A stretch of 10,722 bases of DNA from a virus (Duplodnaviria > Heunggongvirae > Uroviricota > Caudoviricetes): positions 1 to 10,722 of IMG/VR virus record IMGVR_UViG_2531839662_000041; one strand, 5' to 3'. A program made the position numbers and the translations under genes. Below are positions 1,702 through 6,637 of the stretch, piece by piece. Every line of letters starts with the position of its first letter. Within the stretch, counting starts at the first letter, position 1. The notes under the pieces are model-generated. The model had not been told where the DNA came from, searched no databases, and worked only from the letters and a program-made list of their open reading frames with translations.

Positions 1702-1831
1702 TCATTCTCCTTTGGCGAAACCGAATAAAACGGTATTCAAGTATCAGAAAACCTTAGTTCAGGATCGCACTAGCTGCATGATCGAAATCTCATTCTGCGA
1801 ACTGTCAGGCATTTTAGAAAAGGGAATGTAT

Positions 1832-1853
1832 TGATTCACTTGAAGTACGAAAA
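1832..1853 (+). other. MuA transposase end-binding site L1 (attL)
   Basis: TGATTCACTTGAAGTACGAAAA matches the 22-bp MuA end-site consensus TGNTTCAYTNNAARYRCGAAAA at every specified position, 5 bp in from the TG terminus. Confidence 0.85.
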
Positions 1854-1936
1854 AAACCGGGAGGACATTGGATTATTCGGGATTTGGCGGGATTAGATTT
1901 TGTGGGGCTTGCAAGCCTGTAGGACAGATTTTAGCC

Positions 1937-1958
1937 GTTACATCTTGAAACGCGAAAG
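1937..1958 (+). other. Degenerate MuA end-binding site (L2-like; right half matches consensus)
   Basis: The right half CTTGAAACGCGAAAG fits YTNNAARYRCGAAA(A/G); the left half is diverged. Its position relative to L1 corresponds to where I recall Mu L2. Confidence 0.45.
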
Positions 1959-1976
1959 ATTGTTGGAAACAGCTTT

Positions 1977-1998
1977 TGATTCATTAAAGACACGAAAA
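1977..1998 (+). other. MuA transposase end-binding site (L3-like)
   Basis: TGATTCATTAAAGACACGAAAA matches the 22-bp consensus with one mismatch. Confidence 0.7.
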
Positions 1999-2165
1999 GC
2001 AATTACTTCACGCATCATTTCAAGTACAGCTTCAAAAATGCTTCAAAAACGGTAACAACCAGGCTTTCAGCAAGTGATGTGTGTCAAAAATAATCATCAC
2101 TGTTTGGGTATCTTACATATGTAATTACCTGGAGTGAAGTTTATGTCTTAGCTATTACCTGGTTG

Positions 2166-2690
2166 TTATACAGCTTTCTTTACATCGTTTTCTCTTACAG
2201 GGAAATTATGTTCTTTGCCTTCATACTGAGACAAAATCTCTCTCACTTTTTCCGGTGGTAATGCCTGAAGAGTTTGCAGGGTTTTCTGTTGCTCCACAGT
2301 AATCCCTAATGCCTCTAATGCCTTATCTTTACTGACAATTGTAGGCATAAGTCCTTTAATCCCTGCTACACGAATGATCTCCACAGCTGCGGCCTGCTCA
2401 TCTGGTGTTAAGAAGCTCATTGCATAAATTAGCCTCTCATCAACTGTATGGGCGATTGATGTATGCACTGGTTTATCAGAAAGTGAGGCTCCTTTAATGG
2501 CCCTGCGTGTTTCTTCTGGCAGACTGTTGATGTGATACTCATAAGCGACACCTTTCCCACCGTGACGCTGACGTTTTACCCAATCTTCCGCCACAGCTTT
2601 CCTGGTAATGTTAGTCGCCAACTTTGGTACACCAGGCATCCCTTCCAGCTCTTTCGCATTAAACCATTCTTTGATTTCAAAAGACATCAT
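2166..2690 (-). CDS. c: Mu/D108-type prophage repressor c (174 aa)
   Basis: Divergent from ner and immediately right of attL, as in Mu. The C-terminal region (LPPEKVREILSQYEG ... VKKAV) resembles the Mu repressor C-terminus as I recall it (LPEEKRKEILSKYG ... VKKAV). The N-terminus ([25 protein letters not shown]) is paralogous to the N-terminus of the transposase in this window. ATG start with an AGGA Shine-Dalgarno 6 nt upstream on the minus strand. Confidence 0.85.
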   Translation of the reverse strand: MMSFEIKEWFNAKELEGMPGVPKLATNITRKAVAEDWVKRQRHGGKGVAYEYHINSLPEETRRAIKGASLSDKPVHTSIAHTVDERLIYAMSFLTPDEQAAAVEIIRVAGIKGLMPTIVSKDKALEALGITVEQQKTLQTLQALPPEKVREILSQYEGKEHNFPVRENDVKKAV

Positions 2691-2875
2691 TTAAAATCCT
2701 AGTGATTTCAATAGAGACAAAATAAATTCATATAAAAATCATGCCGTTATATAAAATCATGGCAAATCATTTCAAATCACTATTGATTTGGAAGTGATTC
2801 CACACTACATTGCACGATATGCCGTGAGCTACTTTATAGCGTAGCTCACGGGGGAATCTGAAAGGATTACATGAA
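2691..2875. promoter_or_regulatory. Divergent c/ner intergenic region: presumed operator sites (O1-O3 / transpositional enhancer) and the Pe and Pc promoters
   Basis: A 185-bp AT-rich spacer between divergent repressor and ner genes. It contains tandem imperfect direct repeats (CATATAAAAATCATGCC at 2728-2745; TTATATAAAATCATGGC at 2747-2763) and several copies of a GTGATTT/AAATCAC core in both orientations (2702-2708, 2774-2780, 2783-2789, 2794-2800). In Mu this region carries the operators, IHF site and early/repressor promoters. Exact site boundaries are not determinable by eye. Confidence 0.6.
2822..2851. repeat. Perfect 11-bp inverted repeat (CCGTGAGCTAC / GTAGCTCACGG) with 8-bp spacer, 25 bp upstream of the ner start codon
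   Basis: Read directly from the sequence: the arms at 2822-2832 and 2841-2851 are exact reverse complements. Confidence 0.9.
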
Positions 2876-3097
2876 ATGCATATGAATAAAAGAACTAACC
2901 GCCAAGATTGGCACAGAGCTGACATCGTTGCAGAGCTACGAAAACGCAATATGTCACTAGCTGAATTGGGAAGATCTAATCATCTTTCGTCTTCAACATT
3001 AAAAAATGCTTTGGATAAGAGATATCCGAAAGCGGAGAAAATCATTGCAGATGCACTGGGAATGACACCGCAAGATATTTGGCCGTCTCGATACTAG
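2876..3097 (+). CDS. ner: Ner-like DNA-binding protein (negative regulator of early transcription; Nlp/SfsB family), 73 aa
   Basis: The translation ([23 protein letters not shown] ... [19 protein letters not shown]) closely parallels Mu Ner as I recall it (DWHRADVIAGLKKRKLSLSALSR ... IWPSRY). AGGA lies 9 nt upstream of the ATG at 2876. Position is immediately upstream of A, as in Mu. Confidence 0.88.
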
Positions 3098-3104
3098 GTG
3101 CGCT

Positions 3105-5093
3105 ATGAAAGAATGGTATACAGCAAAAGAGTTGCTCGGTTTGGCAGGTTTACCAAAGCAAGCCACTAACATTACACGTAAGGCACAAAGAGAAGGCTGG
3201 GAGTTCAGGCAGGTTGCAGGGACTAAAGGTGTATCATTTGAATTCAATATCAAATCATTCCCTGTCGCATTACGTGCTGAAATTCTGTTGCAACAAGGGA
3301 GAATTGAAACCAGTCAGGGGTATTTTGAAATCGCCCGCCCCACGCTGGAAGCCCATGATTATGATCGTGAGGCACTGTGGAGCAAATGGGATAACGCCAG
3401 CGATTCCCAGCGCAGACTTGCTGAAAAATGGTTGCCTGCGGTTCAGGCTGCAGACGAAATGCTGAACCAGGGGATTTCAACGAAAACGGCATTTGCGACC
3501 GTTGCAGGACATTACCAGGTCAGCGCATCCACTTTGCGAGACAAATATTACCAGGTACAGAAGTTTGCGAAGCCTGACTGGGCGGCTGCGCTTGTTGATG
3601 GACGTGGTGCATCCCGTCGCAACGTTCACAAAAGTGAATTTGACGAGGATGCCTGGCAGTTTCTGATTGCAGATTATCTGCGACCAGAAAAACCCGCCTT
3701 TCGCAAATGTTATGAGCGTCTGGAACTGGCAGCCCGCGAGCATGGCTGGAGTATTCCCTCCCGTGCCACGGCCTTTCGCCGGATTCAGCAACTGGACGAG
3801 GCAATGGTTGTTGCCTGCCGTGAAGGTGAACATGCACTGATGCATCTGATACCGGCACAGCAGCGAACTGTGGAACACCTGGACGCCATGCAGTGGATCA
3901 ACGGCGACGGTTATCTGCATAACGTCTTTGTACGCTGGTTTAACGGTGATGTGATCCGCCCGAAAACATGGTTCTGGCAGGATGTGAAAACCCGAAAAAT
4001 TCTGGGCTGGCGCTGCGATGTGAGCGAGAACATTGATTCAATTCGCCTCTCGTTCATGGATGTGGTGACACGCTACGGCATCCCGGAAGATTTTCACATC
4101 ACCATTGATAACACCCGTGGGGCAGCGAATAAATGGCTGACGGGGGGCGCGCCCAATCGTTACCGCTTTAAGGTGAAAGAGGACGATCCAAAGGGACTGT
4201 TTTTACTGATGGGCGCGAAAATGCACTGGACAAGCGTTGTTGCCGGTAAAGGCTGGGGCCAGGCAAAACCTGTTGAACGTGCTTTCGGTGTTGGTGGGCT
4301 TGAGGAATACGTTGATAAGCATCCGGCACTGGCTGGCGCATATACGGGGCCAAATCCGCAGGCAAAACCTGATAACTATGGCGACCGTGCTGTTGATGCA
4401 GAGCTGTTTCTGAAAACCCTTGCTGAAGGTGTGGCGATGTTCAATGCCAGAACAGGCCGTGAAACAGAAATGTGCGGGGGCAAACTCTCGTTTGATGATG
4501 TTTTCGAGCGTGAATACGCCAGAACGATTGTGCGTAAGCCAACCGAAGAACAAAAACGGATGCTGTTACTGCCTGCCGAAGCGGTGAACGTTTCACGCAA
4601 AGGCGAGTTTACGCTTAAAGTTGGCGGCTCCCTTAAAGGCGCGAAAAACGTTTATTACAACATGGCGTTAATGAATGCAGGCGTGAAAAAAGTTGTGGTC
4701 AGGTTTGATCCGCAGCAGCTACACAGCACAGTTTATTGCTACACCCTGGACGGTCGGTTTATCTGTGAAGCGGAATGTCTGGCACCTGTTGCATTTAATG
4801 ATGCTGCGGCAGGCCGTGAATATCGCCGCCGCCAGAAACAACTGAAATCTGCAACTAAAGCAGCCATTAAGGCGCAGAAACAAATGGACGCGCTGGAAGT
4901 TGCTGAACTGCTGCCGCAGATAGCCGAACCAGCAGCACCAGAATCAAGGGTTGTTGGTATTTTCCGGCCTGTGGGTAACACAGTACGGGTTAAATATCGC
5001 ACCCCCGATGATAAATACGAACCCGCTCGTGATGAATATCTGAATCAGTCACTGGATATTCTGGAACAGAAAAGACGTAAAAAAGCCATTTAA
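3105..5093 (+). CDS. A: Mu-type DDE transposase A (662 aa)
   Basis: Length is close to MuA (663 aa as I recall). The catalytic DDE triad is visible in conserved context: D268 in [15 protein letters not shown] (codon at 3906-3908), D335 in [14 protein letters not shown] (4107-4109), and E391 in AKPVERAF (4275-4277), matching MuA D269/D336/E392 spacing. The N-terminal winged-helix region is paralogous to the repressor N-terminus. Confidence 0.95.
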
Positions 5094-5131: not shown

Positions 5132-6091
5132 ATGAATATTTCCGATATTCGCGCAGGACTGCGCACGCTTGTAGAAAATGGAGAAACCACGCTGACACGC
5201 ATCGCCAGTGAATCAGGCGTGGCCCTGAGCACAGTCAGTGGTTTTGTGAATGATAAATATAACGGCAACATGGAATCAGTCGGGCGCACACTGGAACGCT
5301 GGCTGGAAAACTATCACCGCGCAGAAGAACTGCCGGAACCCCCGCGTTTTGTGGAAACTGCAACAGCCCGTCAAATCTGGACAAGTATGCGTTTTGCTAA
5401 TCTGACCGGAACCATTGCTGTTATCTGCGGTAATCCAGGAGTGGGTAAAAGCGAAGCAGCCCGTGAATTTTGTCGCACTAATAATAATGTCTGGATGATC
5501 ACCATTGCGCCATCCCGTGCCAGTACGCTGGAATGTCTGACTGAACTTGCCGAAGAGTTGGGAATGAATAATGCACCATGTCGCAAAGGACCGCTTTCCC
5601 GTAACCTGCGTCGCCGCCTGAAAGGAACGCAGGGACTGGTCATTGTTGACGAAGCTGATCACCTTGACACCGAAGCGCTGGAAGAGCTCCGTCTGTTACA
5701 GGAGTCCGCCTGTATTGGTCTTGTTCTGATGGGGAATCACCGTGTTTATTCAAATATGACCGCTAATGGCGACAGAACAATTGAGTTTGCCCGTCTGTTT
5801 TCCCGTATTGCAAAGCGCACAGCAATTAATAAAACCAAAGAAGACGATGTAAACGCAATTGCGGATGCCTGGCAGATTACCGGGAAAAATGAACGGGAAT
5901 TATTACAGCAGATTGCACAAACGCCTGGTGCGCTCCGCATTATGAATCAAACGCTGCGCCTTGCTGTTATGAATGCCTTCGGTAAAGGCGAACGTGTTAA
6001 TGAGGATTATCTGCGTGAGGCTTACAAAGAGTTAGACCAGGACGTTGATGTTTCGATGCTGCTGGGTGTGCAAGGGGATGCTGAATCATGA
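5132..6091 (+). CDS. B: Mu B-type AAA+ ATPase (target DNA activator for transposition), 319 aa
   Basis: N-terminus [16 protein letters not shown] and most of the protein closely match MuB as I recall it. Walker A GNPGVGKS and Walker [11 protein letters not shown] are present. GAGG Shine-Dalgarno 8 nt upstream of the ATG. Confidence 0.95.
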
Positions 6092-6315
6092 TGTCACGGA
6101 ATATCAAAATGGCGACGGAAGTAAAGACCTGGTTACAGGAGCGCGGCAGCCACGTCAACGAATCCTGGCTGGGCGTGGCCCGCCCGGTGCTTGAAATTAC
6201 CTGCCCGCCACCGGAGCTGGTCAGAAACGCTGTCAGGATTATGGAGCATAAATCAGGGGTTGCCCGTTCCGTATGGACGGCCCGCCTTAATGGTTGCCAG
6301 ATTATCTGGCGTTAA
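6088..6315 (+). CDS. kil: Small early protein in the kil position (75 aa); putative Kil-like host-killing / cell-division inhibitor
   Basis: The start codon overlaps the B stop (ATGA at 6088-6091), which suggests translational coupling. The size (75 aa) and position immediately after B match Mu kil (~74 aa as I recall). I cannot confirm sequence identity from memory, so this call is positional. Confidence 0.5.
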
Positions 6316-6347
6316 TAACGGCTTATTTATTTGTGAGGAATAACAAA

Positions 6348-6617
6348 ATGGCAAAAGTAATCTTTGAATTTAACAATACAAGAAATATTGAGTTTCAGGA
6401 AAATGGAGGTTTTGCCGTAAATATGAATGTGCGACTGGAAGAATCCTCACCTGAGGACCAGACCGGGCCACATGATGTAATGGCAGGCATCATCAAGAGC
6501 ATGGCTCCTGAAATCATTAAAAAAGCGACCGAGGATTTGTTGAAATCAGCCAGGGAGCTTGGGCTGGAAGCCGAAGGCGAGTTATTCCGGTATAACCCGG
6601 ATGCAGCTAAATATTAA
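6348..6617 (+). CDS. Hypothetical early-region protein (89 aa)
   Basis: The ORF-track entry 6294..6617 starts on TTG. The more plausible start is the ATG at 6348 (MAKVIFEF...), preceded by GAGGAA 9 nt upstream. No recognisable motif. Confidence 0.5.
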   Translation: MAKVIFEFNNTRNIEFQENGGFAVNMNVRLEESSPEDQTGPHDVMAGIIKSMAPEIIKKATEDLLKSARELGLEAEGELFRYNPDAAKY

Positions 6618-6637
6618 TTCGCAAAGGAACGCTGACA

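Follow-up and report, generated by a model that had tools for sequence, protein, structure and literature searches.

A Mu-type DNA-binding domain common to the repressor and the transposase of a D108-type prophage

The early region of a Mu-like prophage raises the question of why its repressor and its transposase begin with similar residues, how typical and how old this similarity is, and whether both proteins would read the same DNA. We analysed a stretch of viral DNA of 10,722 nucleotides (the window). Judged by its sequence, the region considered here governs immunity and early control in a D108-type Mu-like transposable prophage of E. coli UMNF18, a prophage that lies 129 bp upstream of treA. 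Its features are as follows.

1827..1886, plus strand: left end (attL) of the Mu-like prophage; window position 1827 corresponds to D108 nt 1, TGTATTGATTCACTTGAAG...
1887..3316: heteroimmune cassette relative to Mu (c, operators, ner, A I-alpha), from the identity profile
2166..2690, minus strand: repressor gene c, 174 aa, D108 immunity type (172/174 to D108 c; PF02316, E 3.2e-51)
2496..2675, minus strand: c codons 6-65, N-terminal DNA-binding domain common to A (BLASTP, solved-domain matches, HHalign)
2592..2618, minus strand: c residues 25-33, ATNITRKAV, inferred recognition helix (alignment and largest cognate excess)
2672..2800: TGATTT/AAATCA hexamer array, likely c and A operator/enhancer sites (repeat statistics)
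2822..2851: perfect inverted repeat CCGTGAGCTAC-N8-GTAGCTCACGG, identical in D108
2876..3097, plus strand: ner, 73 aa (73/73 to D108 Ner; PF13693, E 1.2e-28)
3105..5093, plus strand: transposase gene A, 662 aa (97.9% to D108 A)
3105..3284, plus strand: A codons 1-60, I-alpha, enhancer-binding domain (alignment, solved-domain matches)
3162..3188, plus strand: A residues 20-28, ATNITRKAQ, inferred recognition helix (alignment and cognate excess)

The Mu-type left end is followed by c on the minus strand, ner, A (DDE_2) and B (AAA+ with a MuB C-terminal domain), and A carries the Pfam domains HTH_Tnp_Mu_1, HTH_Tnp_Mu_2, DDE_2 and Mu-transpos_C. RefSeq names c a “MerR family transcriptional regulator” and A a “transposase domain-containing protein”. 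Segment 1827..1886 is 98% identical to D108 and to Mu alike, and the D108 record annotates a transposase-binding site at nt 11-27. Forty complete E. coli genomes contain the same left end at a query cover of at least 80%, and among those listed it adjoins different genes. The left end, the gene order and the varied insertion sites identify a Mu-type transposable phage (Muvirus); this assignment covers the left end and the early genes, the right end and target duplication falling beyond the window.

We found that c 6-65 and A 1-60 align without gaps, with 33/60 residues identical and 41/60 positive (BLASTP, E 6e-18). A sequence-only reading of this DNA had placed the similarity at 2498-3284 and estimated 33 identities over the 59 positions of c 7-65 and A 2-60. 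Both peptides are present, and 33/59 is indeed the count, because the added first pair (I/M) mismatches; the span is right within 2 nt (c 7-65, nt 2496-2672; A 2-60, nt 3108-3284). The same reading had proposed alignment against shuffled controls and an HMM search against the Mu-type family, and both bear it out: the local alignment scores 164 while 5000 shuffles give 23.7 +/- 4.5 with a maximum of 55 (z = 31), and PF02316 HTH_Tnp_Mu_1, with a gathering cut-off of 23.3, matches c at 173.6 bits and A at 142.4 bits. PF02316 is the Mu-type DNA-binding domain of the Mu repressor and of MuA I-alpha. Furthermore, c and A are each homologous in sequence to the solved Mu domains 1TNS/1TNT (MuA I-alpha) and 1G4D/1QPM (Mu repressor), with E values of 6.9e-8 (1TNS) and 6e-4 (1G4D) for c and of 1.1e-15 and 1.2e-3, respectively, for A.

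Profile-profile comparison of 33 c and 33 A N-termini limits the homology to the first 60 columns (HHalign probability 99.8%, E 1e-28), with nothing in common in the tails past these columns (probability 0.3%). A longer shared region, suggested by PF02316 spanning about 134 positions in both proteins, is rejected on this result for the tails. Could the resemblance be that of any two helix-turn-helix proteins, or chance, with neither ancestry nor target in common? The shortness of the domain is all that speaks for such a reading, and we consider its probability negligible in view of the E value, the z-score, the HHalign probability and the fact that c and A match a single Pfam family and one and the same pair of solved domains. 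The two N-termini are genuine paralogues, both of the Mu type. Single-sequence AlphaFold2 models of c 1-80 and A 1-80 are of low confidence (pLDDT 45 and 60); in these low-confidence models the secondary-structure elements are in register after a 5-residue offset, the recognition-helix residues fall in predicted helices c 23-31 and A 18-30, and a Foldseek search against the PDB returned noise only, with no match at E <= 0.001. The first eight residues of c 25-33 are identical to A residues 20-27.

Next we compared the prophage with D108 (GenBank GQ357916) and Mu. The immunity type is that of D108: c is 98.9% identical, ner 100% and A 1-80 100% (80/80), with 177/185 positions identical in the control region, and c/A identity in D108 is likewise 33/60. 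The prophage differs from D108 by Y50N and A80V in c, by eight substitutions within the repeat array (2745-2793), by a diverged A C-terminus (aa 610-656) and by a diverged B (77% identical). With Mu (1G4D/1QPM, 1TNS/1TNT; Harshey et al. 1985) it has in common the domain family, the gene arrangement and the presumed regulatory logic, whereas the immunity type is another: over the domain, identity of c to Mu c is 28%, that of A 1-80 to MuA is 49%, the helix has AGVHYRA / AGVIYVA in Mu where the prophage has ATNITRKA, and the c/A identity of Mu itself is lower (26/64, 41%). From c to A I-alpha, identity to Mu is 28-80% in 60-nt windows; in the identity profile the divergence ends at about A codon 71, and identity rises to 100% at 3317. 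The crystal structure of the MuA transpososome starts at residue 77, without I-alpha (PMC3562280), and we count the proximity of the cassette boundary to this residue as support for the explanation given below.

The similarity between c and A of D108 is claimed in the title of Mizuuchi, Weisberg & Mizuuchi 1986 (NAR 14:3813; ref 52 in PMC3820752). Since the prophage proteins are nearly identical to those of D108, the c/A similarity restates that work. The shared domain is real, ordinary and already known, and the finding as stated matters little, as it rediscovers the 1986 D108 result and a textbook Mu mechanism.

To place the value of 55% we surveyed Mu-like elements whose repressor is Mu-type, taking 33 non-redundant immunity types. 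Among these 33 types the mean cognate c/A identity is 53% (range 42-68%), with D108 (55%) in mid-range and Mu (41%) a low outlier. The sequence-only reading had called the paralogy unusually clear; at 55%, equal to the value of D108 itself, it is instead typical. The Mu-type c/A pairing is present at 87 loci and absent at 43 for which sufficient upstream flank was available. Where a Mu-like element has a lambda CI-type repressor, its A likewise begins with an I-alpha-type domain and a repressor gene lies divergently upstream, but this repressor is of the HTH_3 plus Peptidase_S24 type or another Cro/C1-type HTH_3 protein: all ten sampled have HTH_3-class domains, seven also Peptidase_S24, and none of the ten has a domain in common with A. 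As such loci exist, the paralogous coupling of c and A is common and not universal. The survey adds modest value, the c/A pairing being general where the repressor is Mu-type and about one third of relatives using an unrelated CI-type repressor.

We then asked how old the similarity is. The earlier reading had offered recent domain exchange or strong constraint as its causes. Over the domain, the DNA of c and A is 59% identical, third positions agree at 26/60 and fourfold sites at 4/13, no identical run is longer than 11 nt, and dS is saturated at about 3.4. Furthermore, none of the 33 cognate pairs exceeds 66% nucleotide identity or contains an identical run of more than 20 nt. Recent exchange or conversion between the two genes inside the phage would fit the higher identity of c and A within the element (55%) than of D108 c and Mu c over the domain (28%), as well as a third-base identity at identical residues of 0.472 against a codon-usage control of 0.428 (P 0.007, 33 elements). 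Set against the nucleotide data this reading is very improbable, and any recent c/A exchange event is already contradicted by the synonymous sites.

Constraint fared better. In the 33 non-redundant elements, identity between c and A is 0.53 for cognate and 0.39 for non-cognate pairs (permutation z = 10), where a single ancient duplication followed by independent drift would predict equal cognate and non-cognate distances. Within wing-length subfamilies, the recognition helix is more similar in cognate than in non-cognate pairs (0.58 vs 0.38 and 0.43 vs 0.30; 0/5000 permutations reached the observed value), while no significant cognate excess was found in the C-terminal scaffold columns of the 33 elements. 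This concentration of cognate similarity in the inferred recognition helix and wing agrees with strong constraint. Much of the cognate similarity might also stem, not from residue-wise co-evolution, but from ancient conversions or duplications in which a copy of one domain repeatedly took the place of the other in different lineages. Cognate c-A pairs (0.53) are more alike than c-c (0.40) or A-A (0.41) pairs between types, c and A agree in wing-length class in 33/33 elements, and helix 1 too has a small cognate excess (P ~0.013), next to the small synonymous excess. However, the excess centres on columns 18-26 and on the wing, being non-significant in the C-terminal scaffold, a c domain has its own A as nearest relative overall in just 3/33 cases, and synonymous sites are essentially randomised; we regard such replacement as unlikely, though worth keeping in view. 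As part of the whole explanation, it is highly probable that the c and A domains are old paralogues whose DNA-specificity residues have been kept matched.

What DNA would these residues read? TGATTT occurs seven times in 2672-2789, at 2672(+), 2703(+), 2736(-), 2754(-), 2764(-), 2774(-) and 2784(+), with a variant TGATTC at 2795. Six copies lie in 2691-2820 (130 nt), where 0.24 are expected, and the right-hand hexamers are phased 10-11 bp apart. The copy at 2672 lies inside c and may merely reflect coding sequence. The likely shared array of c/A sites, assigned from repeat statistics, is confined to about 2672-2800, so that the range of 2691-2875 proposed earlier was too wide: the perfect inverted repeat at 2822-2851 is a different element. 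In keeping with background on D108 Ner, this repeat is probably the Ner operator, separate from the c/A sites. In the promoter scan of the region no plus-strand early promoter reached threshold; the sole candidate, on the minus strand at 2765-2738, is possibly a c promoter. A candidate Pe promoter at 2783-2811 comes from manual reading (8/12 to consensus) and is missing from the scan output. A potential IHF site at 2737-2749, with one mismatch to WATCAANNNNTTR, was rejected; matches in the window are fewer than in shuffles.

In Mu, I-alpha binds the enhancer (PMC3362531, PMC3562280), which partly overlaps the O1-O3 operator region and in which two MuA-binding clusters surround an IHF site (PMC3145075); this precedent had been quoted correctly by the sequence-only reading. 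In the textbook account of Mu, one repressor keeps the early promoter silent and obstructs the transposition enhancer as well, because it has the enhancer-binding domain of the transposase. What was computed here is the homology, the D108 identity, the hexamer array, the joint variation of c, A and motif across many elements described below, and the lack of recent DNA exchange. By analogy with the biochemistry of Mu and D108, from which binding, competition and promoter position are taken, we propose that c and A, each beginning with the Mu-type domain of about 60 residues, would act on the same DNA. As ATNITRKA is the same in both and the specificity residues are matched, both are expected to read the TGATTT array at about 2672-2800. 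Bound at this array between c and ner, c would shut the early promoter and would also cover the sites that A needs as transpositional enhancer, so that one protein would block early transcription and transposition. We give this explanation as a whole, with matched old paralogue domains, a common array and a dual block, a probability of about 90%. Regulators that compete with or poison a transposase through the same DNA-recognition module are also found in IS1 (InsA), IS911 (OrfA) and Tn5 (inhibitor protein); those inhibitors are products of the transposase gene itself, arising by frameshifting or from alternative starts, and their action is at the ends of the element, whereas the prophage has two separate paralogous genes and the proposed action is at an internal operator/enhancer.

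Finally, the motif itself varies with the helix. TGATTT is present in 5-6 copies in 4/4 elements with a TN(I/V)(T/N)R helix and in 0-3 copies in 29 others (P 4.5e-4), and there is no long DNA alignment between the D108 and Pasteurellaceae control regions. The 33 elements are phylogenetically non-independent, and the helix-motif classes therefore number about five, not 33. The proposed pairings of helix and motif would be:

helix TN(I/V)(T/N)R: motif TGATTT
helix PQG(V/I)NK: motif AGTTTC/AGAAAC
helix GVHK: motif ATAAAC
helix SDR(N/W): motif AACGGA
helix RRxRD: motif GGAC(G)

We found no such helix-to-motif table in the searchable literature. We hypothesize, at even odds, that in Mu-like elements whose repressor is Mu-type the helix and wing of c, the helix and wing of A I-alpha and the operator/enhancer hexamer co-vary as a unit and are swapped as a cassette ending near the I-alpha/I-beta junction, with a helix-to-motif table readable across about 33 types. 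The practical value of the analysis is one of annotation, as the region can be named precisely as that of a D108-immunity Mu-like prophage. If the cassette hypothesis is true, this domain class would have a small recognition code, and heteroimmunity and enhancer compatibility would be predictable from sequence.

The early region of a D108-type Mu-like prophage in the window is laid out as follows.

First 1701 nt, minus strand: treA (gene call)
1827 onward (TGTATTGATTCACTTGAAG...): left end of a Mu-type transposable prophage, corresponding to D108 nt 1
2166-2690, minus strand: repressor c, 174 aa (Pfam HTH_Tnp_Mu_1)
2672, 2703, 2736, 2754, 2764, 2774 and 2784: TGATTT/AAATCA hexamers, both orientations counted
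2795: variant hexamer TGATTC
2822-2851: perfect inverted repeat, a kind of site distinct from the hexamers
2876-3097, plus strand: ner (Pfam HTH_35)
3105-5093, plus strand: transposase A, 662 aa (Pfam HTH_Tnp_Mu_1, HTH_Tnp_Mu_2, DDE_2, Mu-transpos_C)
5132-6091, plus strand: B, 319 aa (Pfam AAA_22, Phage-MuB_C)

The Pfam matches confirm the roles of c, ner, A and B; RefSeq/PGAP labels the prophage c a 'MerR family transcriptional regulator'. Escherichia coli UMNF18 is 100% identical to the window, and the left end was found in 40 complete E. coli genomes (match covering at least 80% of the query), next to genes that, among the matches listed, differ from genome to genome, as a transposing phage predicts. 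In UMNF18 the insertion lies within the treA upstream region, with the treA ATG (1698, minus strand) 129 bp from the left end, and could cut treA off from regulatory DNA upstream.

We found that c and A do share an N-terminal domain, as the sequence-only reading had claimed from about 33 identities over 59 positions: 33/59 was recovered over the same ranges, with the domain coordinates off by no more than 2 nt. A gapless BLASTP alignment pairs c 6-65 with A 1-60 at 33/60 identities (E 6e-18), and a local alignment score of 164 lies far above that of 5000 shuffles (23.7 +/- 4.5, z = 31). Furthermore, both N-termini match the solved MuA I-alpha domain (1TNS; 6.9e-8 for c, 1.1e-15 for A) and the solved Mu repressor DNA-binding domain (1G4D; 6e-4 and 1.2e-3), which places them in the Mu-type family; alignment-free structure models of the two N-termini were of low confidence and too poor for comparison. 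The Pfam model PF02316 aligns over about 134 positions in c and in A alike (window 2166-2690 and 3105-3530). In HHalign profile-profile comparison of 33 c with 33 A, the homology is confined to the first 60 columns (99.8%, E 1e-28) and the tails past column 60 are unrelated (probability 0.3%), so that, judged by sequence, the model seems to fuse two distinct downstream regions.

This shared domain is already known. The prophage is nearly D108 here, with identity at 172/174 residues of GenBank D108 c, 73/73 of Ner, 80/80 of A residues 1-80 and 177/185 nt of the c-ner control region; D108 has the same c/A identity of 33/60, and Mu has 26/64. That repressor and transposase resemble each other at the N-terminus in both D108 and Mu is claimed in the title of Mizuuchi, Weisberg & Mizuuchi 1986, and Harshey et al. 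1985 had reported it for Mu; PMC3820752 cites the two papers as references 51 and 52. All eight control-region substitutions fall within the hexamer array (2745-2793), and one of them completes the hexamer at 2764 (AAATCA in the window, AAATCC in D108); on either side of the array, the start of c, the inverted repeat (the probable Ner operator) and ner show no change. At c codon 50 (2541-2543), which falls on a beta strand predicted for the DNA-binding domain, the window and IMG/VR D108-type copies encode Tyr50 (GVAYEYHI) and GenBank D108 Asn50 (GVANEYHI), which we speculate may be a laboratory (thermoinducible?) allele.

The paralogy had also been called unusually clear, which a survey of related elements does not bear out. 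We fetched 159 related loci and located the domain by iterated HMM; 87 loci had A plus a divergent domain-bearing c, and these reduce to 64 unique pairs and then to 33 non-redundant immunity types. Identity between c and A of the same element (cognate) averages 0.53 (range 0.42-0.68), making D108, at 0.55, typical and Mu, at about 0.44, a low-end case. Another 43 loci have an I-alpha-type A and no domain-bearing c (at least 1300 nt upstream required). All ten sampled for the DNA upstream of A (L081, L052, L018, L022, L135, L014, L062, L070, L050 and L044) carry a Cro/C1-type (HTH_3-class) repressor, in seven with the Peptidase_S24 domain also found in lambda CI; such elements therefore have no site sharing by a common domain.

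Two explanations had been offered for the likeness, recent domain exchange and strong constraint. Recent exchange is contradicted at the DNA level: aligned codon for codon, the coding segments share 59% of their nucleotides, with 26/60 third positions and 4/13 fourfold sites matching, dS about 3.4 and dN 0.41 (NG86), and a longest identical run of 11 nt. Across the 33 types no cognate pair exceeds 66% nucleotide identity, and where residues are identical the third base matches at a rate of 0.472 vs 0.428 for a codon-usage control. At about 67%, synonymous third-base identity peaks in the Pasteurellaceae loci L064, L025 and L047, with the longest identical runs (20 nt) in L064 and L047; an older conversion between c and A is most plausible in these three.

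Constraint, on the other hand, is supported. Identity between c and A is 0.53 for cognate vs 0.39 for non-cognate pairs (permutation z = 10), and also exceeds that between types for c-c (0.40) and A-A (0.41), which is incompatible with a single old duplication followed by independent drift. The excess falls on columns 18-26, six of which reach 0.33-0.55, and on the tip of the wing; scaffold columns show almost none. In the window, columns 18-26 are c 25-33 and A 20-28, whose first eight residues, ATNITRKA, are identical. These columns would form the recognition helix, judging from low-confidence model secondary structure and the Mu structures, in which we take them to be that helix. Within the two wing-length subfamilies, identity in this putative helix is 0.58 vs 0.38 and 0.43 vs 0.30, values reached in 0/5000 permutations; the excess in the C-terminal part of the domain is not significant within either.

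The DNA sites vary with the same residues. The hexamer occurs six times in 2691-2820 vs 0.24 expected, with 10-11 bp spacing among the right-hand sites. All four elements with a TN(I/V)(T/N)R helix (D108, an Enterobacteriaceae MAG, [Haemophilus] felis and H. influenzae) have 5-6 copies of TGATTT vs 0-3 in the other 29 types (P 4.5e-4), and apart from the hexamers the D108 and Pasteurellaceae control regions do not align. The remaining helix classes have different top hexamers, common within each class. The proposed range of shared sites, 2691-2875, proved too broad: it also spans the inverted repeat at 2822-2851, which is probably the Ner operator known from D108, and thus would combine two operators. 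Promoter and IHF scans of the window were uninformative. The mechanism invoked by the sequence-only reading, repressor competition with the transpositional enhancer, is indeed established for Mu, where I-alpha binds the enhancer (PMC3362531; PMC3562280) and the enhancer, made up of two MuA-site clusters flanking an IHF site, overlaps part of the O1-O3 operator region (PMC3145075).

Divergence between the window and Mu runs from about 1887 to 3316, and identity is 100% from 3317 (about A codon 71), close to residue 77, from which MuA is present, without I-alpha, in the transpososome crystal structure (PMC3562280). Judging by where this divergence ends, the module swapped relative to Mu is c, the operators, ner and the I-alpha domain of A. 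Separately, the window diverges jointly from Mu and D108, themselves almost identical there, in the A C-terminal part (4937-5056, aa 611-651) and nearly all of B (5177-6315), with 98-100% conservation in the 120 nt between. Twelve of the 14 A differences from D108 lie within aa 610-656, and B is 77% identical (319 vs 312 aa). MuA domain III-beta interacts with MuB/ClpX (PMC3562280), which suggests a second module whose parts co-vary. At about 6318 the prophage lacks some 180 nt or more that Mu and D108 have downstream of kil (gene 6 / E5 region), and 6344-6632, past this gap, resembles D108, not Mu.

Taken together, the shared c/A domain holds up, and so does the core of its interpretation; the paralogy is neither unusual nor the product of recent exchange. 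Only one point is mildly new: across the surveyed Mu-like elements, all three of c, A and the operator repeat co-vary.
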